A stretch of 64,000 nt of DNA, from positions 912-64,911 of the forward strand of contig DASWKK010000066.1 in assembly GCA_036396655.1 (NCBI GenBank), written 5' to 3'. The translations under genes were made by a program, and so were the position numbers. Each line of letters begins with the position of its first letter. Within the stretch, counting starts at the first letter, position 1. The DNA is from Acidimicrobiia bacterium (GTDB taxonomy: Bacteria; Actinomycetota; Acidimicrobiia; Spongiisociales; ZC4RG35). The notes under the pieces were generated by a model. The model did not search any database, was not told where the DNA came from, and saw only the letters and a list, made by a program, of their open reading frames with translations. Positions 5,988 to 24,825 of the stretch are shown here, one piece after another.

Positions 5988-7376
5988 TTGCCAGTTCATG
6001 TGGTGATCCTCGCTGCCGGCGAGGGCAAGAGAATGAGGTCCGATCTGCCCAAGGTGGCCCACATGGCGGCGGGACGGTCCCTGATCGGTTGGGTGCTGGA
6101 GGCGGTTCGCCCGTTGGAGGCGGCGAGCACCGTTGTTGTCGTCGGTCATGGAGCCGAAATGGTCGACCCGCATCTTCCCCAAGGGGTTCTCTCCGCAGTT
6201 CAGAGTGAACAGCTCGGAACCGGGCACGCCACCCAAGTGGGCCTCGACGCACTCGACGAAGTGGAACCCGATGACACGATCATGGTCCTCTACGGGGACA
6301 TGCCGTTGCTCAGTGACGGTCTGCTGAGAAGACTGGCTGATCGATCTCCCGACGTGGCGGCTCGTCTGGTGACCTCAACTTTCGATGACCCCACCGGCTA
6401 TGGCCGTGTCATCAGGGACGGTCGTGGGTTGGTGGAGAAGATCGTGGAGGAGCGGGATTGTGACGATGCCCAGCGGGCGGTGAGGGAAATCAACGCCGGC
6501 TCGTACGCCTTTCGGGCCAGGGACCTGATCGATGCTCTCAGCCTCGTTTCCAACGACAATGCCCAGGGCGAGTATTACCTGACCGACGTGGTTGGGATCC
6601 TGGTGGGGAGAGGGGAGCGTCTGGAACCGGTGGAGACGACACCCGAGGAGGTGGTCGGTATCAATTCTCAGAGCCAATTGTCGGAGGCGACTCGACTCTT
6701 GCACAAGCGCACCAATCAGAGGCTGCTCGAATCGGGAGTGTGGATTCTCGATCCCGACCGGACCTACATCGACGACACAGTGTCGGTCGAGCCGGGGGCC
6801 AGGATCTATCCGGGGGTCCATCTCGAGGGAGAAACCAGGGTCGGAGCGGGAGCCCAAGTCGGGCCCGATGTCTTTGCTGTCGATTCCACCATTGGTGCCG
6901 GGTCGACCGTGTGGTACGCGGTGCTGCGTGGCGCGATGATCGGGGAGGATTGCCAGGTCGGCCCATACGCCTCCCTGCGTCAGGGCACGGTTCTGGAGAA
7001 GGGTGCCAAGGTCGGGACTTTTGTGGAGACCAAGAACACCACGCTCGGTGAGAATGCCAAAGCACCTCATCTGTCGTATCTGGGCGACGCAACCATCGGC
7101 GCCCGATCCAACATCGGCGCCGGGTCGATCACCTGCAACTATGACGGCTATCAGAAACACCGAACCGAGATCGGTGAAGAGGTCTTCATCGGATCGGACA
7201 CCATGCTGGTTGCCCCGGTGAGGATCGGAGACCGCGCTGTCACCGGCGCCGGTTCGGTGATAACGCAGGACGTCGACGAAGGCGCTCTTGCCGTTGAGCG
7301 GAGCGAGCAGCGTCTGATCGACGGCTACTCTGAAAGGCGAGCCAAGAGACATGCCGCCAACGAAACAGAGGACTGA
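5988..7376 (+). CDS. glmU: bifunctional UDP-N-acetylglucosamine pyrophosphorylase / glucosamine-1-phosphate N-acetyltransferase
   Basis: N-terminal nucleotidyltransferase motif VVILAAGEGKRMRSDLPKV and C-terminal left-handed beta-helix hexapeptide repeats; TTG at 5988 preceded by GAGAGG; the track ORF start at 5892 overlaps the tRNA and is rejected. Confidence 0.85.
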   Translation: MPVHVVILAAGEGKRMRSDLPKVAHMAAGRSLIGWVLEAVRPLEAASTVVVVGHGAEMVDPHLPQGVLSAVQSEQLGTGHATQVGLDALDEVEPDDTIMVLYGDMPLLSDGLLRRLADRSPDVAARLVTSTFDDPTGYGRVIRDGRGLVEKIVEERDCDDAQRAVREINAGSYAFRARDLIDALSLVSNDNAQGEYYLTDVVGILVGRGERLEPVETTPEEVVGINSQSQLSEATRLLHKRTNQRLLESGVWILDPDRTYIDDTVSVEPGARIYPGVHLEGETRVGAGAQVGPDVFAVDSTIGAGSTVWYAVLRGAMIGEDCQVGPYASLRQGTVLEKGAKVGTFVETKNTTLGENAKAPHLSYLGDATIGARSNIGAGSITCNYDGYQKHRTEIGEEVFIGSDTMLVAPVRIGDRAVTGAGSVITQDVDEGALAVERSEQRLIDGYSERRAKRHAANETED

Positions 7377-8349
7377 GTTGGACATTGTTTCCCGCAACCG
7401 AATGATGCTGTTCACCGGGGGCGCCAATATCCCCCTCGCTGAAGAGGTGGCGGAGGTCCTGGGCGTGGCGCTGGGTGACCTCGAGCGGTCGCGATTCGCC
7501 AATGGCGAGCTCTACATTCGACCCGGTGAGAGTGTCCGTGGGGCGGACTGCTACGTGATGCAGTCTCATTGCGAGCCCATGAATGACAACATCATGGAGC
7601 AGCTGATAACGATCGATGCGCTGAAGAGGGCGTCCGCGCGTCGCATCACCGCGGTGATGCCCTACTTCGGATACTCGAGGCAGGACAAGAAGGTCAGGCC
7701 GCGGGAGCCGATCACCGCTCGGCTGGTCGGGGACCTCTTCATGACGGCGGGCGCCGACCGGTTGGTCTCGGTGGACCTGCACACCGGCCAGTTGCAGGGA
7801 TTCATCCACAAGCCGTTCGACTCGCTGACAGCGCTTCCCATCATCACCGAGTATCTGTCCGAGCGGCTCGATGGCCCGACCACTGTCCTCTCCCCGGACG
7901 CTGGTGGGGTGAAGCGGGCCGAGCGGTATGCCAGATTTCTCGATGCCTCCGTCGCCTTCGTGTACAAACGGCGCGATCCGACCGAGCACAACGTCTCTTC
8001 GGCGTTGGCGATGGCGGGATCGGTCAAGGACCGGCATGTCGTGATCGTCGATGACATCATCGACACGGCGGGGACGGTCACCAACGCCGCCGAGATGGTC
8101 CATGCCCAGGGCGCCCTCAGCGTGCGCATCGCGGCCACCCACGGTGTGTTCTCCGATCCTGCGGTTGACCGGATCAAGAACGCACCGGTAGAGGAAGTGA
8201 TCGTTACCAATACCCTGCCGGTGTCACCCGAGGCACTGGAGTTGGACAAGGTCCAAGTCCTGTCGATAGCGCCGATCCTGGCCGAGACCCTGCAGGCGAT
8301 CTTCATGGATTCTTCGGTCTCGGAGATCTTCCTCGGCGAGAACGCCTAG
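7351..8349 (+). CDS. prs: ribose-phosphate pyrophosphokinase
   Basis: LFTGGANIPLAEEVA..., PYFGYSRQDKK, VVIVDDIIDTAGT motifs; N-terminal extension as in mycobacterial PrsA; alternative start at 7402. Confidence 0.85.
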   Translation: MPPTKQRTELDIVSRNRMMLFTGGANIPLAEEVAEVLGVALGDLERSRFANGELYIRPGESVRGADCYVMQSHCEPMNDNIMEQLITIDALKRASARRITAVMPYFGYSRQDKKVRPREPITARLVGDLFMTAGADRLVSVDLHTGQLQGFIHKPFDSLTALPIITEYLSERLDGPTTVLSPDAGGVKRAERYARFLDASVAFVYKRRDPTEHNVSSALAMAGSVKDRHVVIVDDIIDTAGTVTNAAEMVHAQGALSVRIAATHGVFSDPAVDRIKNAPVEEVIVTNTLPVSPEALELDKVQVLSIAPILAETLQAIFMDSSVSEIFLGENA

Positions 8350-18595: not shown

Positions 18596-18862
18596 GTGCA
18601 GACCGATATTCATCCCACCTACGGCGAGACCAACGTCACCTGCTCGTGTGGAAACACTTTCGTCACCAACAGCACCAAGCCCGGTGACATGCACGTAGAG
18701 CTCTGCAACGAGTGCCACCCGTTCTTCACCGGCAAGCAGAAACTGGTCGACACCGGTGGCCGTGTCGAGCGTTTCCAGAAGCGCTACGGCAAGACCGTGT
18801 TCACCAAGGCCGGGGATCCGGTCCCCGAAGGCGCAGAGGCTGAAGCCGTCGAAGCAGAGTGA
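18596..18862 (+). CDS. rpmE: 50S ribosomal protein L31
   Basis: [22 protein letters not shown]...[10 protein letters not shown]; GTG start with AGGAGA Shine-Dalgarno. Confidence 0.9.
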
Positions 18863-18938
18863 GCCGCCCTTCCCCCCGACAACGAAATTGGGACGCACAG
18901 GTCCGGATTTGACCCCTGACCGTCCCCATCAAAAAGGG

Positions 18939-19901
18939 GTGAGCGTCGACCCCGCCAAAACGGTGGGAGGCCAGGCAGTGATCGAAGGCGTCATGATGCG
19001 CGCCCCGGGAGCCTGGTCGGTTGCGGTTCGTCAACCCGACGACTCGATCGTGGCTCGGCGCGACCAGCTGGAACGGCTCTCCCAACGCAACCGTGCCGCC
19101 CGGATTCCATTGGTGCGCGGGATCCTGGTTCTCTGGGAGTCGCTGAGCCTGGGGTTCAGGGCTCTTTCCTGGTCGGCCGAGAAGGCGGCAGGGGAAGAGG
19201 AGGAGCCGCTGACCAAAGTCCAGATCGGCTGGACCATGGCGTTGGCAATGACGCTGTTCGCCGGTTTGTTCATCCTCTTGCCCGCCCTTGCCGCAAGTGC
19301 GGTGTCGGGCGAATCGGGAATCCTGTTCAACGTCATCGAGGGCCTGATCCGTCTCGCCCTGTTCATCGGCTACATATGGGCGATCGGGCGCTCCAAGGAG
19401 ATCGGCAGGGTCTTCGAGTACCACGGTGCCGAGCACATGTCGATCCACGCCTATGAGGCGGGGGAGCCGCTGAGCATCGATTCTGTCCGGCGCTATCCAC
19501 CCGAGCACCCTCGCTGTGGCACCAGCTTCCTCTTGATCGTGGTGCTCGGCTCGATCATCCTCTTCTCGTTCTTCGGTCAGCCGGGCTGGGCATTCCTGGT
19601 GGTCTCCCGTCTTCTCGGCATCCCGATCATCGCTGGGCTCGCCTACGAGTTGCTCCGTTGGTCGGGAACCAGGAGCACCGGCGTGTTGGCACGAGTCCTC
19701 GCCGCTCCCGGGATATGGCTTCAGAAGCTCACCACCCGTGTTCCTGACAGATCACAGATCGAAGTTGCGATCTCGGCCCTGGTGGTGGCCTTGGACGACG
19801 AGATGCTGGAGAACGTGCTCGGGCGAGGCGGTGTGCCGGATTCGGCGCTGTCGGCTCGTCTCGCCGTGGTTGGAGCCTCGCCTCCACTCGCCGGCGAATG
19901 A
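18939..19901 (+). CDS. DUF1385 (YqhQ-like) membrane protein
   Basis: [11 protein letters not shown]...[14 protein letters not shown]...HPRCGTSF signature; start uncertain (GTG 18939 or downstream). Confidence 0.7.
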
Positions 19902-20959
19902 TGGACGAGTCGCTCGCGCGGAGGTTCGCCGAGATCGAGACGGCTTTCGAGGAGACCGAGGCCGCGCTGGGCAATCCTGAGATCCTGGCCGACTCGTCCC
20001 AGTTGGCCGAGCTGGGGAGACGTCATTCCGAGCTGCGGGAGGTCGTCGCCGACATTCGCCGTCTCCGGCAGCTCAACACCGATCTCCAAGAGGCCCGCGA
20101 GATGTCATCCGACGCCGACATGTCTCGACTCGCCGAGGATCTATCGGTGGAGATAGCGGAGCTCGAGCAACGCATCAGCGCCACCCTGGTCCCCAAGGAT
20201 CCGGCAGCCTCCCGAGATGTCATCGTCGAGATCCGCTCGGCGGCGGGCGGGGACGAAGCCGCGATCTGGGCCGGCGACCTGTTGCGCATGTATGAGCGCT
20301 ATGCCGAGCAAGGTGGGTTCAAGGTCGAGGCGATGGATTCCTCCCCTTCCGAAGCCGGTGGCTACGACAAGGTCACAGTCGCCATCAAAGGAAAGGGCGC
20401 TTACTCGAGGATGAAGTATGAGGCCGGGGTCCATCGGGTACAACGGGTGCCAAAGACCGAGTCACAGGGACGGATCCACACTTCGACCGCGACCGTCGCC
20501 GTCCTGCCTGAGGTTGAGGAGGTGGAGGTGGAGATCGACCCCAATGACGTGAAGGTCGACGTCTATCGATCGACCGGGCCGGGCGGCCAGTCGGTCAACA
20601 CCACCGACTCGGCAGTGCGTCTCACCCATCTGCCCACAAACTTGGTGGTGACCTGTCAGGACGAGAAGAGCCAGCTCCAGAACAAGGAGAAGGCCATGCG
20701 CATCCTGCGGGCCCGGCTCTATCAGATGGAGCTGGAGCGACAGCAGGCGGAGTTGGCCGGGGCGAGACGATCCCAGGTGGGATCGGGGGGCCGCTCGGAG
20801 AAAGTCCGCACCTACAACTACAAGGAGAACCGGGTGACTGACCATCGCATCGGTCTCACCCTCAAGCGGCTCGACCAGGTGCTGGAAGGGGATCTCGGCG
20901 AGCTCGTCGATGCACTTGCGGCTGACGAGCAGGCGACCCGGCTCGCGGCCGGCAACTGA
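19898..20959 (+). CDS. prfA: peptide chain release factor 1
   Basis: GGQ motif ([24 protein letters not shown]) and PxT-type domain. Confidence 0.95.
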
Positions 20960-20971
20960 GGGCTCTCGACT

Positions 20972-22381
20972 TCAGGCGCCGGCACCGAGGTTGGCCACGC
21001 CCTTGCGCTCCATGTTTCCCCAAGCGCGGGTCTCCTTGCCTCCGATGATCGCCCTGATCCGCCACGCAACCGTGATCTGGCGCAAGCCGAAGTTCTCGAT
21101 GAGCACCATGACGATGAGTCGGGCGGTGTCGGCCTTCGAGTTGAAATAGCCGTATGTCTCATCCAACAACAGGGCAATCAGAGAGTTGAGCAGTCCCACG
21201 CCGAAGGCGAGAGCCAGCAGTATCACCAGCGAGGTGGTGTTGAGAGCGCCGAGGATCAGAGCCACCGGGATGGTTATCCATCCCACGAACTCGACGATCG
21301 GAGCCACGTACTCGAAAAGGAACATCGCGGCCCAGGTGACCATCCCCACCTTGCCGTACTTGGGGTTGAACGTCATGGGCATGAAATCCTTGACCGCGGT
21401 CATCAGGCCACGGTGCCAGCGGATCCGCTGGCGCCTCAAGACACGGAGAGTTTCGGGGACTTCGGTCCAGATCACCGCCGAGGGCTCGTAAACGATCCGG
21501 TAGGGGATCGAGTTGTCGATGTGGTAGCGGTGGAGACGCATCGTCAGATCCATGTCCTCGCCCATGTGGCCACTGGTGAATCCGCCAACGGCGATAACGG
21601 CCGACCGTTTCCATACCCCGAAGGCACCCGAGACCAGGGGCAAAGCTTCCATGCCCGACCATGCCGGACGGGAAGCGAGAAAGGTGCGGACGTACTCCAG
21701 GACCTGCATGCGAGGCACCAGCTTCTTGGGGACCTCGGCCTTGATCAGGTGACCGAGTTGGACGCGGCTTCCGTTGAGTGGGCGAATGTTCCCTCCGACG
21801 GCGATTGTCCGAACCCGGTCCTCCACCACGCGCCGCATAGCTCCCACCAGGCAATTGGCGTCGAGAATCACGTCGGCGTCCGTGCAAAGGGCATACGGAT
21901 ATCGGGCGGCGTTGATTCCGGCGTTGAGCGCATCGGCTCGGCCCGCGTTCGCCTTGTCGATCACAGTTATGTCGACACTCCCATGGCCCCGGTATATCCC
22001 CCTGACCTCGGCCGTCGGGATATCCGGCCGATAGGGGATACGCACCTTCTCCAGATGGAAGGCATCGATCATGACTTGCAGCGTGTCGTCGGTCGATCCG
22101 TCGTTGGTGACGACGATCTCGAATCTCGGGTAGCCCACGATCGACATCGAACGGACCGAGTCGACGATGCCGGCCTCCTCGTTGTATGCGGGGATGACGA
22201 TTGAAACCGGGGGAGAGGTCTGGCTGGACAACATGTCCGAGACCCGCCCGAATCGGTCGAGATGGTGTACCCGTCTCATGACAGCTGCCGATCGCATTCC
22301 CAGCCATATGAGATAGGTCTGCATCAGGATGAAATAGACCAGAGTGGCGTAGCCGACCCAGCGAAGGGCATCGAAGATCAT
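20972..22381 (-). CDS. processive family-2 glycosyltransferase (cellulose/chitin/PNAG-synthase-like, membrane-embedded)
   Basis: GT-A core VSIVIPAYNEE...VVTNDGSTDDT, DxD region TDADV, Q(R)xRW motif LRRQRIRWHRG, N- and C-terminal TM helices. Confidence 0.8.
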   Translation of the reverse strand: MIFDALRWVGYATLVYFILMQTYLIWLGMRSAAVMRRVHHLDRFGRVSDMLSSQTSPPVSIVIPAYNEEAGIVDSVRSMSIVGYPRFEIVVTNDGSTDDTLQVMIDAFHLEKVRIPYRPDIPTAEVRGIYRGHGSVDITVIDKANAGRADALNAGINAARYPYALCTDADVILDANCLVGAMRRVVEDRVRTIAVGGNIRPLNGSRVQLGHLIKAEVPKKLVPRMQVLEYVRTFLASRPAWSGMEALPLVSGAFGVWKRSAVIAVGGFTSGHMGEDMDLTMRLHRYHIDNSIPYRIVYEPSAVIWTEVPETLRVLRRQRIRWHRGLMTAVKDFMPMTFNPKYGKVGMVTWAAMFLFEYVAPIVEFVGWITIPVALILGALNTTSLVILLALAFGVGLLNSLIALLLDETYGYFNSKADTARLIVMVLIENFGLRQITVAWRIRAIIGGKETRAWGNMERKGVANLGAGA

Positions 22382-23523
22382 TTGGGCACCGCTTCTTGGG
22401 CGGTGACATAACCGAGAAGGACCCGGTCACCGTGGTTGGCCTCGCCAGCCTCGAACCGAGCTCTGGCCGCGGCCAGCTCACCGGAGTCGGCCAGAGCTTC
22501 TGTGGCGGCGTCGGCGGCGAACGGCGCCTCGGACTCGATCGCCTTCAACAGCAAGTCGGTCCCGCCCGGCAGGATCGCTAGTGCCGCTGCACTGTTGCGC
22601 CGGACCCACCAGTTCTCGTCTTCCAGGCCCTCGGCCAGCACCGGATTGATCGACGGGTCTCCGATCTGAGCGAGGGCCGTGGCCGACTTCGCCCGGAGCC
22701 TCCAATCGGGGTGGCGGAAGGTGTACTTGAGCGGTCTTATCGCCAGCGGGCCGCCGACCACGCCCAAGGCGTCGATAGTGGCGATCGCTACCTCCGGGTC
22801 GCTGGCGACCCGCAGCACCCCGGCGAGTGTCGGGCCGACTTCTTGATCGCCGATCGTGCCCAGCACTCGAATTGCCTCGATCACGCCCTGGTTCTGGTCG
22901 TGGCCGAGATTGACCCTTATGTAGGCGACTAGGGGCCAGGTGGCCTTGGTCCCGAACCCGACGAGCGTGTCGGCGAAGCGGGCCCGCACCCAAGGCTGTT
23001 CGAATCCGAACCTCTCCAGGATGGGGTCGATGGCGGAGGTGTGTTGTATCCGCCCCAGTCCACGGGCACATTGGATTCGTATCTCAGGCTCCCGGTCGTC
23101 GAGATGCTCGATCAGGACCGGCGCCGACGACTCGTCTCCCATCTCGGCGAGTGAGACGGCTGCTCGCAGCCGTCTCCCGAGTGGGAAGCGACTGCGGAGT
23201 CTTGCCTCCTGTCTCTTGGCCAGCCCACTTCTGTCGATGATCCCGGTGAGGTTGTCGATCTCCGTCCCGGAGACGATGTTTCGGAGGTCGATGACCGCGT
23301 CGAGAAACGCATCATCGTCGGCGATATTCGTCCCGAATGGATCGGTGTGGTGTTGGAAGGCGAGATGACGGCTGAGAACAGTCACGTACTCGGCGCGGCG
23401 CGCGGCGTGGATTCGCCTACGGCGGCGGTGCACCGCCTTCAGCGAAACCAGCCCCGTGAGGAGAATGACGTCGATGAAGAAGACAACCGCGACCGCGATC
23501 AAGCCGATCGTTGCTGGGTTCAT
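22378..23523 (-). CDS. HEAT-repeat (PBS-lyase-like) protein with N-terminal transmembrane anchor
   Basis: N-terminal TM helix IGLIAVAVVFFIDVILLTGLV followed by multiple ~30-aa helical repeats; ATGA overlap with the GT2 gene. Confidence 0.6.
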   Translation of the reverse strand: MNPATIGLIAVAVVFFIDVILLTGLVSLKAVHRRRRRIHAARRAEYVTVLSRHLAFQHHTDPFGTNIADDDAFLDAVIDLRNIVSGTEIDNLTGIIDRSGLAKRQEARLRSRFPLGRRLRAAVSLAEMGDESSAPVLIEHLDDREPEIRIQCARGLGRIQHTSAIDPILERFGFEQPWVRARFADTLVGFGTKATWPLVAYIRVNLGHDQNQGVIEAIRVLGTIGDQEVGPTLAGVLRVASDPEVAIATIDALGVVGGPLAIRPLKYTFRHPDWRLRAKSATALAQIGDPSINPVLAEGLEDENWWVRRNSAAALAILPGGTDLLLKAIESEAPFAADAATEALADSGELAAARARFEAGEANHGDRVLLGYVTAQEAVPK

Positions 23524-23578
23524 GAGATCTCTCGGGTTTATCGGCTGGCACGGTCACCGCATTGAGCGAATGCGCCCG

Positions 23579-23947
23579 TCAGCCAAGCAGACGCTGGCGA
23601 ATTCTGGCCATCAACTCGGGAAGATGAAACGGCTTGCGGACGAAGTCCACCGCCCCCAGGTCGAGGCTGCTCACCACTGTCCTGTCGTCGTCCACCCCTG
23701 AGAGCATGATGACCCGGTTCACATGCCCTTCTTGTTGCCACCGATCGATGACCTCCAAACCGAGCAATCCGGGCATCAGCTGATCCATGATCACCAGGTC
23801 GAACTCGCCCGTGATGCCCTTCTCGTATGCCTCTACGCCATTGATTGCGGTGTCGACCGCATAACCTTCCAACTCCAGAGCGGTCGCCAGGAGCGTCGTA
23901 ACGGTTGCGGAGTCGTCGGCAACCAGCACTCTCTTGACGTCGGGCAT
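23579..23947 (-). CDS. single-domain response regulator (CheY-like receiver only)
   Basis: VLVADDSATV...DLVIMDQLMPG...VDFVRKPF with conserved Asp and Lys; no output domain. Confidence 0.8.
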   Translation of the reverse strand: MPDVKRVLVADDSATVTTLLATALELEGYAVDTAINGVEAYEKGITGEFDLVIMDQLMPGLLGLEVIDRWQQEGHVNRVIMLSGVDDDRTVVSSLDLGAVDFVRKPFHLPELMARIRQRLLG

Positions 23948-24099
23948 GGGGGGGTCCCAGCTTCTCTTCGCTTTCGGATTCCTCGTTGATGATGGCAGAT
24001 TTCCCCATCGCGCCAGGTGCTTCCCTGACTTGGGGCCTGAGCGGCCTATCTTCTCAATTCTGTTCGTGCTCGTTCACGCGTGGGAGACTTGGTGCGCCG

Positions 24100-24825
24100 A
24101 TGGAGACCATTCCTGATCATGAGATGTCGAGACTCCAATCGCTCGCAGGGCGGGAAACGCCCCTGGAGGAGCTGATCGCTCGCCGTCTCGCCGGTGAACC
24201 GCTCCAGTACATCGAAGGGATCGCAGCCTTCGGCCCACTCGAGTTGGTGGTCGACGAAAGGGTGCTCATCCCGCGTCCCGAGACCGAGGGCTTGTTCGAG
24301 CTGGCGACCCGTCTGGTGCGGACACCCGAGGTGGTGGTCGACCTGTGCACCGGGTCGGGTGCGCTGGGGCTGGCCCTCAAGAGCTTCTTCCCCGGCGCCG
24401 CGGTGTTTGCCACTGATATCTCGGGGGATGCGATTGAGGTGGCGGCATCCAACCGAGATCGGACAGGTCTGCATGTCTATCTGGCAGAAGGCAATCTCTT
24501 CGACCCTCTGCCTGCCGCGATGTTGGGCACGGTCGACCTGATTGTGGCGAATCCGCCATACGTAGCCGAGGTGGACTTCCCCGGTCTGCCGCGGGACGTG
24601 CAGAGGGAGCCGCGTGTTGCACTTGTCTCGGGCCCGACCGGTCTCGAGATCATCCAGGAGATCGGTGCATCGGCGGCGGCCTGGCTTCGCCCGGGAGGGG
24701 TCGTCATCTGCGAGATCGGTGATCGTCAGGCTGTTTCGGCGTCGAGCTCCTTCCGCGATCTCCCCGCCGTCGTTCGTCAGGACCTCACCGGACGCGACCG
24801 CTATGTGGTCGCGGTCAAACCGTGA
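24100..24825 (+). CDS. prmC: release factor glutamine methyltransferase (PrmC/HemK)
   Basis: VLIPRPETE and VANPPYV (NPPY) motifs; start placed at ATG 24100 giving a short N-terminal domain; upstream part of track ORF (23986) does not look protein-like. Confidence 0.75.
   Translation: METIPDHEMSRLQSLAGRETPLEELIARRLAGEPLQYIEGIAAFGPLELVVDERVLIPRPETEGLFELATRLVRTPEVVVDLCTGSGALGLALKSFFPGAAVFATDISGDAIEVAASNRDRTGLHVYLAEGNLFDPLPAAMLGTVDLIVANPPYVAEVDFPGLPRDVQREPRVALVSGPTGLEIIQEIGASAAAWLRPGGVVICEIGDRQAVSASSSFRDLPAVVRQDLTGRDRYVVAVKP

Follow-up and report, generated by a model that had tools for sequence, protein, structure and literature searches.

A receiver, a HEAT-repeat protein and a putative polysaccharide synthase encoded between prfA and prmC in an Acidimicrobiia bacterium

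Introduction

Synthase-dependent polysaccharide systems, such as those for cellulose, poly-beta-1,6-N-acetylglucosamine (PNAG), alginate, Pel and hyaluronan, have a central place in biofilms and cell envelopes, and those described so far are gated mainly by cyclic dimeric guanosine monophosphate (c-di-GMP). The present work concerns a cassette of three genes within 64,000 nucleotides of DNA from an Acidimicrobiia bacterium (assembly GCA_036396655.1, contig DASWKK010000066.1, positions 912 to 64,911 of the forward strand), a stretch that is referred to in its entirety as the window. The cassette encodes a CheY-like receiver (REC), a HEAT-repeat protein and a family-2 glycosyltransferase (GT2), and it separates prfA, the gene for release factor 1, from prmC, the gene for the methyltransferase that modifies release factors. 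It is assigned to the synthase-dependent kind of polysaccharide system, in a REC/HEAT variant that is widespread and apparently unstudied. The reading preferred here, to which a probability of roughly 55% is attached, is that the operon represents the minimal monoderm form of a widespread, phosphorylation-gated exopolysaccharide synthase complex, and that its placement between prfA and prmC is old and vertically inherited.

The closest characterised relatives by sequence are the PgaCD and IcaAD systems. These resemble the cassette in the size and topology of the synthase, where a GT-A domain is preceded by one transmembrane helix and followed by others, in having a membrane-anchored partner encoded next door and in post-translational control by a signal, which for the cassette is a proposal. 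The partner in these systems is PgaD, of about 137 aa as judged from annotated coordinates, or IcaD, whereas that of the cassette is a 381-aa HEAT solenoid. Moreover, PgaCD and IcaAD are regulated by c-di-GMP and are accompanied by a deacetylase, whereas the cassette has an adjacent phospho-receiver and no deacetylase.

The cellulose synthase complex BcsA-BcsB has the same catalytic core, the QxxRW motif, a partner anchored by a transmembrane helix and an allosteric cytosolic switch, although the switch is again proposed rather than observed for the cassette. It also shares an outer-membrane porin of tetratricopeptide repeats (TPR) and a beta-barrel with the Gram-negative versions of the module described below. 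Unlike the cassette, it contains PilZ and BcsB, and its accessory protein is periplasmic, in contrast to the HEAT protein, which is placed in the cytosol. The class I hyaluronan synthases (HAS) of Chlorella virus and Xenopus (HAS1; PDB entries 7sp7 and 8smm) provide the best full-length match to the fold of GT2 and are single-polypeptide synthase-translocases of similar size, but their sequence identity to it is 15-18%. HAS alternates two sugars and is not known to need a protein partner or a receiver. The NfrB-NfrA and yaiO-yaiP-yaiS systems of E. coli are like the Gram-negative relatives of the cassette in being built on a GT2 enzyme with outer-membrane barrels of the TPR or YaiO type, but neither has a HEAT partner, and NfrB is annotated as a c-di-GMP-activated glycosyltransferase. 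A precedent for the receiver is found in Myxococcus xanthus, where the single-domain response regulator EpsW is reported to control exopolysaccharide synthesis by contacting and activating the priming phosphoglycosyl transferase EpsZ directly (PMC12802240). The EpsW/EpsZ pair differs from the cassette in belonging to a Wzx/Wzy-dependent pathway, in having a phosphoglycosyl transferase as its target and in having no HEAT partner (PMC12802240).

The glycosyltransferase

The original prediction had named the three genes of the cassette and placed them on the minus strand between prfA and prmC, and these identities and positions hold when examined with Pfam, NCBIfam and open reading frame (ORF) analysis (Table 1). 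GT2 contains the catalytic motifs of a family-2 enzyme, namely D94, D168-x-D170, E275-D276 and LRRQRIRW at residues 315-322 (Q318RIRW322). Across 66 relatives, D94, D170, D276, Q318, R319, R321 and W322 are invariant, whilst D168 and E275 are nearly so (at least 90%). The sequence also has hydrophobic C-terminal helices at residues 345-408.

An AlphaFold2 model of GT2 built on the 66 relatives has a predicted local distance difference test score (pLDDT) of 92.5 and a predicted template-modelling score (pTM) of 0.92. It consists of one long N-terminal helix, the GT-A domain, interface helices and a C-terminal helical bundle, with helices at residues 2-42, 340-358, 360-377, 382-407, 416-428 and 433-446. 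When the model was compared with the PDB using Foldseek, the hyaluronan synthases came top with full-length matches (TM-score 0.66-0.69, E ~1e-16), followed by BcsA, the chitin synthases of yeast and Candida (Chs1/Chs2) and plant CesA. A sequence search of the PDB returned matches to the N-terminal GT-A region alone, with E ~1e-5. The modelled protein has the membrane-embedded fold of the processive synthases with flanking transmembrane helices, and on this basis GT2 is regarded as a putative processive polysaccharide synthase/translocase. The assignment to this type, which had been made from LRRQRIRW, is therefore strengthened by the catalytic motifs, the model and the Foldseek matches; at the level of the model the transmembrane channel of such synthases is retained along with full-length matches to them.

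Amongst curated NCBIfam families the nearest to GT2 is PgaC_IcaA (TIGR03937), with 139.3 bits and an E-value of 1.6e-40 against a cut-off of 422.3. E. coli PgaC shares 26% identity with GT2 across 370 residues, and all catalytic motifs are aligned. The automatic name given to GT2 by JGI, 'cellulose synthase/poly-beta-1,6-N-acetylglucosamine synthase-like glycosyltransferase', is a generic family label. Weaker matches are found to Pfam GT21 and to a polyprenyl-phosphate transferase. These similarities raise the question of whether GT2 is a PNAG (poly-beta-1,6-GlcNAc) synthase in the strict sense, a functional PgaC/IcaA in which the HEAT protein has replaced PgaD/IcaD. The best NCBIfam match, the PgaC alignment and the JGI name all speak for this, but the score is one third of the cut-off, the operon has neither a deacetylase (PgaB/IcaB) nor PgaD/IcaD, and the 66-relative alignment indicates that the GT2 family has a conserved C-terminal tail and insertions of its own. 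Moreover, the sugars used by GT2 synthases as distant as this differ, and the top structural matches are hyaluronan synthases rather than PNAG synthases. A strict PNAG synthase is thus considered unlikely.

Several other assignments were tried and rejected. GT2 was not accepted as a curated-grade PgaC/IcaA, since it falls below the cut-off and the cassette is without PgaD/IcaD and PgaB/IcaB. Nor was it accepted as BcsA, as no PilZ match was detected in GT2, no BcsB is present and the scores lie far under the cut-offs (35 bits against 699 for TIGR03030 and 22 against 992 for PRK11498). The earlier statement that the cassette has no partner of the BcsB or PgaD type is upheld, as PgaD, BcsB and PilZ are all missing from it. 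The NfrB type was set aside because a BLASTP comparison with E. coli NfrB gave a best E-value of 0.011 over 70 aa and GT2 stops at residue 469 with no additional domain; the C-terminal c-di-GMP-binding domain of NfrB is presumably MshEN. Finally, E. coli YaiP (29% over 233 aa) is a weaker relative than PgaC.

The HEAT-GT2 pair and its distribution

The HEAT protein has a strongly hydrophobic N-terminus (residues 1-32). A single transmembrane helix at the N-terminus is followed by a basic juxtamembrane stretch and then by a HEAT solenoid of the PBS-lyase type, which is placed in the cytosol. A cross-phylum alignment shows that its relatives are collinear throughout, from the transmembrane helix and basic stretch to a solenoid with PBS-type 'WWVR…AA.ALG' repeats, and an arginine-rich stretch is conserved right after the transmembrane helix. 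A PDB search with the HEAT protein returned designed alphaRep proteins and generic HEAT repeats and nothing else. The stop codon of the HEAT gene and the start codon of GT2 overlap by 4 nt, as originally reported, and the two genes are translationally coupled.

How widely this pair is found was examined in two ways. A search of 1.84 billion representatives of 50%-identity clusters with GT2 gave 17,015 relatives at E <= 0.001, the nearest of which outside the Acidimicrobiia are 35-45% identical; of the best 150, 71 exceed 700 aa in length. A genome scan with a 10-sequence alignment, in which each GTDB species was represented by one genome, gave 80 loci, and with two loci found separately the set comprises 82. 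Eighteen of the 80 scan loci belong to Acidimicrobiia, with GT2 identities of 49-90%, and the remainder are 36-44% identical. The proteobacterial carriers include Brevundimonas, Mesorhizobium and other Alphaproteobacteria as well as Halomonas/Vreelandella, Stutzerimonas, Luteimonas and Stenotrophomonas, and the Bacillota are represented by Paenibacillus, Clostridium and several Bacillaceae. Further carriers are found in the Gemmatimonadota, Acidobacteriota, Bacteroidota, Thermoleophilia/Gaiella and one Chloroflexota genome.

Automatic scoring of ORFs found a HEAT-family gene directly upstream of GT2 in 78 of the 82 loci. Two of the four exceptions are cut by a contig end, and in the other two the gene proved to be there, either as a HEAT gene at 6931-7998 (L033) or as a diverged HEAT_2 protein (L076). 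Hence all 80 assessable loci, which span at least eight phyla, have the HEAT gene immediately before GT2 and in the same orientation, and in many of them the HEAT stop and GT2 start overlap or abut. The arrangement had been thought special to this locus, but REC/HEAT/GT2 is instead a conserved and widespread module found across many phyla.

The strongest evidence that the two proteins of the window act as one complex comes from natural fusions of the Rosetta-stone kind. Using Pfam together with a hidden Markov model built from the HEAT family of the window, at least 20 HEAT-to-GT2 fusions were identified among the best 150 of the 17,015 cluster representatives, and in these the HEAT part is collinear with the HEAT protein of the window from the N-terminal helix onward. 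A model of one such fusion, P0335 (953 aa; pLDDT 89.3, pTM 0.86), has an extra helix at residues 441-466, which follows the solenoid and precedes the counterpart of the N-terminal helix of GT2. With the solenoid and the GT-A domain both taken to be cytosolic, an extra membrane pass is needed between them, and this helix would provide it. Other architectures are seen amongst close relatives of GT2, including HEAT+GT2+TPR (P0252, 1389 aa), GT2+FecR+TPR (P0257, 958 aa) and two GT2 proteins in which about 300 aa at the C-terminus are without a match in Pfam (P0247 and P0249).

In each of the three proteobacterial clusters examined, a YaiO beta-barrel is encoded between the genes for the receiver and the HEAT protein, and in two of the three it comes with TPR repeats. 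The YaiO barrel is the analogue of PgaA, BcsC or NfrA. Its presence points to an exported polymer as the product of the family, and the operon of the window, having neither porin nor kinase, would correspond to a minimal monoderm form. The barrel also bears on the view that GT2 is a non-processive membrane glycosyltransferase, whose product would be a glycolipid or lipid-linked sugar used in glycosylating the wall or proteins, and for which the HEAT protein would be a scaffold. One of the best fold matches is to the archaeal mannosyltransferase PcManGT (6yv7), weak matches to GT21 and a polyprenyl-phosphate transferase exist, and the housekeeping-like conservation within Acidimicrobiia (see below) would suit a core envelope function. 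Against these, GT2 has the QxxRW motif and three to four transmembrane helices at its C-terminus, and it aligns over its whole length with HAS, BcsA and Chs. The YaiO barrel (with or without TPR) in the sampled Gram-negative operons would make sense only with an exported polymer. A non-processive enzyme is accordingly judged very unlikely, and the preferred reading of GT2 as a polymer-exporting synthase is retained.

In the clusters of Bacillota, large ORFs of 719-1075 aa with no Pfam match flank the HEAT-GT2 pair (Table 1), and these could be extracellular parts of the system that are peculiar to monoderms. In E. coli K-12, yaiO lies near yaiP, a putative glucosyltransferase, and yaiS, a putative deacetylase, with an acyltransferase gene disrupted by IS2 in between (380069-384616; L086), and the group resembles a degraded form of the YaiO-barrel polysaccharide clusters of the Gram-negative relatives. 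The Xanthomonas xagABCD genes were considered as a characterised member of the family, but the xag literature gives no domain architecture. When the Stenotrophomonas terrae ortholog was used as a query, the best 120 matches, all of which were at least 63% identical, included no Xanthomonas protein. The link is thus unsupported rather than disproved.

The receiver and its input

The receiver has the full set of acceptor-site residues (D11, D12, D54, S83 and K105) together with the aromatic switch residue F102, and is predicted from these to be a phosphorylatable, CheY-like single-domain response regulator. A receiver-domain protein is encoded upstream, on the same strand and within 3.5 kb, in 60 of the 82 loci, 40 of these being stand-alone and 20 fused. 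The fused forms are Hpt-REC-GGDEF-REC, REC-GGDEF-REC, Hpt-REC-REC and X-REC, where in every case a C-terminal REC domain is the one next to the HEAT gene. This C-terminal REC is also always the domain closest to the receiver of the window, scoring 35-64 bits compared to 11-33 bits for the other REC domains.

An intact GGEEF motif is present at four Bacillaceae loci and one actinobacterial locus only. The REC-GGDEF-REC proteins of Gemmatimonadota (Table 1) have no GG(D/E)EF motif, and their GGDEF domains are probably degenerate and non-catalytic. With GGEEF intact at so few loci, c-di-GMP synthesis appears to be an optional add-on to a constant receiver. Several clusters also contain hybrid histidine kinases, with the architectures CHASE3-PAS-HisKA-HATPase-REC, 5TMR-LYT-PAS-kinase-REC and HAMP-GAF-PAS-kinase-REC.

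It has therefore to be considered whether the receiver acts as a phosphate sink or relay, with the real output lying in transcription or in c-di-GMP, and with the HEAT protein or the tail of GT2 serving as the nucleotide receptor. The Hpt-REC-GGDEF(GGEEF)-REC proteins of Bacillaceae and of one actinobacterial cluster are consistent with this, as are the hybrid kinases of several Gram-negative clusters, which carry extra receivers as in phosphorelays, and the conserved arginine-rich stretch after the transmembrane helix of the HEAT protein. Yet in most clusters the GGDEF domain is absent or degenerate whilst the HEAT-adjacent receiver is conserved, and the arginine-rich stretch is equally predicted by the positive-inside rule. 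There is no GGDEF domain in the window, and no c-di-GMP-binding domain (PilZ, MshEN or I-site) was detected in the cassette proteins. A sink or relay is for these reasons regarded as rather improbable.

Proposed mechanism

In the reading preferred here, GT2 would use its cytosolic GT-A domain to polymerise a nucleotide-sugar and would thread the polymer through its own transmembrane channel. The HEAT protein would be an obligate co-subunit, anchored in the membrane next to the synthase by its single N-terminal helix, and its solenoid would rest on the catalytic domain of GT2 from the cytosolic side. There is a parallel for the position of the helix, as PgaD, IcaD and BcsB pack in the membrane with their synthases. 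The receiver would be phosphorylated at D54 by an unlinked histidine kinase and, once phosphorylated, would dock on HEAT/GT2 and switch synthesis on or off post-translationally. It would thereby take the role played by the c-di-GMP receptors for cellulose, PNAG, alginate and Pel.

The most likely product is a homopolymer that is either secreted or associated with the wall, and PNAG is the closest guess from sequence. The housekeeping-like conservation of GT2 suggests a constitutive polymer of the envelope or matrix rather than an occasional accessory of biofilms. A broader proposal can be put forward tentatively, that REC/HEAT/GT2 is an unrecognised, phylum-spanning class of exopolysaccharide machine in which a phosphorylated receiver, and not c-di-GMP, directly gates a PgaC-like synthase via a membrane-anchored HEAT-solenoid co-subunit, and whose role in the Acidimicrobiia lineage at hand is a vertically inherited envelope function evolving at a housekeeping rate within a translation-termination/ATP-synthase block.

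A number of points weigh against a phosphorylation-gated synthase complex. The archaeal enzyme PcManGT (6yv7) is one of the top Foldseek matches of GT2 (E ~1e-14), and we take it to have a minimal cellulose-synthase-like fold, yet it is no known polymer exporter. An identity of 26% to PgaC is, moreover, a level from which the product of GT2 is not readable. At the remaining 22 of the 82 loci no receiver is encoded in the same orientation in the 3.5 kb upstream, and as one of them (L018) is a complete chromosome without it, the receiver is not obligatory. In some lineages c-di-GMP may be the proximate signal, given the intact GGEEF cyclase of Bacillaceae. Searches of the window with phmmer, using kinase, GGDEF and REC probes, found no histidine kinase, GGDEF domain or second receiver, which makes the receiver of the cassette a true orphan. 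The contacts between REC, HEAT and GT2 are deduced from linkage and fusions, and targeted searches of a full-text library found no description of a HEAT-GT2 or REC-HEAT-GT2 system.

If the proposal is correct, a cytosolic HEAT co-subunit on a membrane anchor, together with an adjacent two-component receiver, would add a new control logic to synthase-dependent systems. The module is carried by soil Acidimicrobiia, rhizobia, Stutzerimonas, relatives of Halomonas, Bacillaceae, Clostridia, Gemmatimonadota and others. Several carriers are culturable, among them Stutzerimonas stutzeri 28a39, Mesorhizobium sp. WSM3859, Vreelandella subterranea, Anoxybacillus kestanbolensis and Paenibacillus ferrarius. 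For the Acidimicrobiia, a major uncultured group of soil and freshwater, a strongly conserved envelope or matrix polymer is indicated. What deserves attention is the conserved module and its natural fusions; the placement between prfA and prmC is a curiosity of secondary importance, which shows that a long-term transcriptional uncoupling of both genes is possible.

Age of the placement between prfA and prmC

The original prediction regarded the cassette as a discrete insertion that disrupts gene order. The second part of this is correct, in that the cassette interrupts an otherwise intact series of genes running thrC-rho-rpmE-DUF1385-prfA on one side and prmC-sua5-glyA-atp on the other. The notion of a recent event finds no such backing. 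The GC content, the GC content at third codon positions (GC3) and the skew of the cassette are indistinguishable from those of its flanks, and no integrase, transposase or tRNA is present in 20960-24099. An imperfect 18-nt direct repeat (16/18) at 20926-20943 and 24297-24314 falls inside the coding sequences of prfA and prmC and is probably due to chance.

The arrangement prfA, GT2-HEAT-REC, prmC-sua5-glyA recurs in loci L001, L004-L008 and L087-L089, and in part in L009/L010. The first six (L001 and L004-L008) are different species-level genomes with a GT2 identity of 82-90%. Across six species-level genomes GT2 is 82-89% identical, compared with 77-82% for PrfA, 83-88% for GlyA and 86-92% for Rho, whilst the HEAT protein (60-73%) and the receiver (70-78%) show values similar to those of PrmC, Sua5 and ThrC. 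Two of these genomes, the metagenome-assembled genomes (MAGs) at L004 and L005 with GT2 86-89% identical and the same actinobacterial synteny, are titled 'uncultured Acidobacteriota bacterium', which is probably a mislabel.

In a neighbour-joining tree the GT2 proteins of Acidimicrobiia form one clade, in which the prfA/prmC arrangement defines a crown group. On two deep branches (L016 and L018) HEAT-GT2 also abuts prfA. At L018 (2700-6800) the site lacks the receiver, prmC and sua5, and an EEP-family gene, an SDR gene and an ABC ATPase gene lie between glyA and the HEAT gene; in this complete chromosome (OZ244213.1) prfA and prmC are apart. Another eleven Acidimicrobiia loci (L002, L003, which duplicates L002, L011-L015, L017 and L019-L021) carry the cassette elsewhere, four of them in a common second conserved context. 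The possibility that the cassette occupies the same site throughout the class therefore stands in part, since the placement is typical of the lineage represented by L001, L004-L008 and L087-L089, but it does not extend to those eleven loci. The placement is clade-typical, neither class-wide nor recent. The simplest reading is that the module has been vertically inherited in the class, with an old association with prfA and later relocations, although repeated insertion at the same prfA site is a possible alternative to one old event. With so old a placement, prmC would long have been expressed from a promoter of its own in the 152-bp spacer.

A recent genomic island or mobile insertion, to which the opposite strand, the interrupted gene order, the 16/18 repeat and the presence of the cassette elsewhere in other Acidimicrobiia might point, is highly improbable in view of the flank-like composition, the lack of mobility genes or tRNA, the chance quality of a repeat in coding sequence, the divergence of the cassette proteins in step with flanking housekeeping proteins in six species-level genomes, the monophyly of GT2 for the class and the failure to find an empty prfA-prmC junction among the 23 or more contigs carrying the identical GT2.

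Genomic context

The features of the locus are collected in Table 1. The prfA stop codon lies at 20957-20959 (+), and prfA and GT2 are convergent with their stop codons 12 nt apart, whilst the receiver gene and prmC are divergent with 152 nt between their starts. Three minus-strand genes fill the 3.1 kb in between, with 55 nt from the end of the receiver gene to the start of the HEAT gene. The GC3 of the cassette genes is 0.76-0.80, a coding-type value, and given this together with the strong domain matches and long ORFs, chance does not account for the three genes.

Table 1. Positions of the genes and other features discussed in the text; coordinates are those of the window unless a locus is named.
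Feature	Coordinates	Strand	Evidence or remark
prfA, release factor 1 (upstream flank)	19898-20959	+	TIGR00019 492 bits (cut-off 423); Pfam PCRF and RF-1
GT2 gene, family-2 glycosyltransferase, 469 aa	20972-22381	-	Pfam Glyco_tranf_2_3, Glycos_transf_2, Glyco_trans_2_3
HEAT-repeat gene, 381 aa	22378-23523	-	HEAT_2 112 bits in three stretches; also HEAT, HEAT_PBS
Stand-alone CheY-like receiver gene, 122 aa	23579-23947	-	Response_reg 88.7 bits, residues 7-117; no output domain
Divergent intergenic region, 152 bp	23948-24099		Between the receiver and prmC starts
prmC, release-factor glutamine methyltransferase (downstream flank), 241 aa	24100-24825	+	TIGR03534 208 bits (cut-off 199)
GC-rich stem-loop across both convergent stop codons	20948-20985		RNA fold of 20935-21000
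DUF1385 gene	18756-19901		266 bits
Large Bacillota ORFs	L083 9335-12562; L047 4218-6377; L031 1516-3726 and 3737-6787		No Pfam match
Gemmatimonadota REC-GGDEF-REC proteins	L024 5616-6887; L030 5614-6897; L038 5051-6880		No GG(D/E)EF

The ATG at 24100 is most likely the start of prmC, the same 241-aa product being called on metagenome contigs that carry an identical GT2, and the 3' end of prmC overlaps the start of sua5. Around the cassette the genes are ordered thrC, rho, rpmE, DUF1385, prfA, the cassette itself, prmC, sua5, glyA and the atp operon, an order that we take to be a conserved actinobacterial block, represented for example by Rv1295-Rv1304 of M. tuberculosis. In E. coli K-12, prfA and prmC are adjacent with a 1-nt overlap.

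The stem-loop that spans the convergent stop codons may act as a bidirectional terminator. The fold of 20935-21000 has an energy of -34.2 kcal/mol on the plus strand (z = -2.3) and -30.4 kcal/mol on the minus strand (z = -1.1). It was not flagged by a scan for consensus terminators, because it is without a T-run. At the other end of the cassette, the divergent intergenic region must hold the promoter of the REC-HEAT-GT2 operon as well as a separate promoter for prmC. A promoter scan of this region gave zero sigma-70 consensus matches, a consensus that says little for this phylum.

Close homologues of the REC, HEAT and GT2 proteins come from MAGs labelled as Acidimicrobiia. A contig collection has the identical GT2 sequence in 53 of its indexed blocks; all 23 contigs that were read, which come from ENA and JGI metagenomes, carry it, with the same gene arrangement in the three places shown. 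The source is an abundant uncultured population. The DUF1385 gene lies between rpmE and prfA and overlaps the start of prfA by 4 nt, and its placement is identical in all related loci that retain the rpmE-prfA block.

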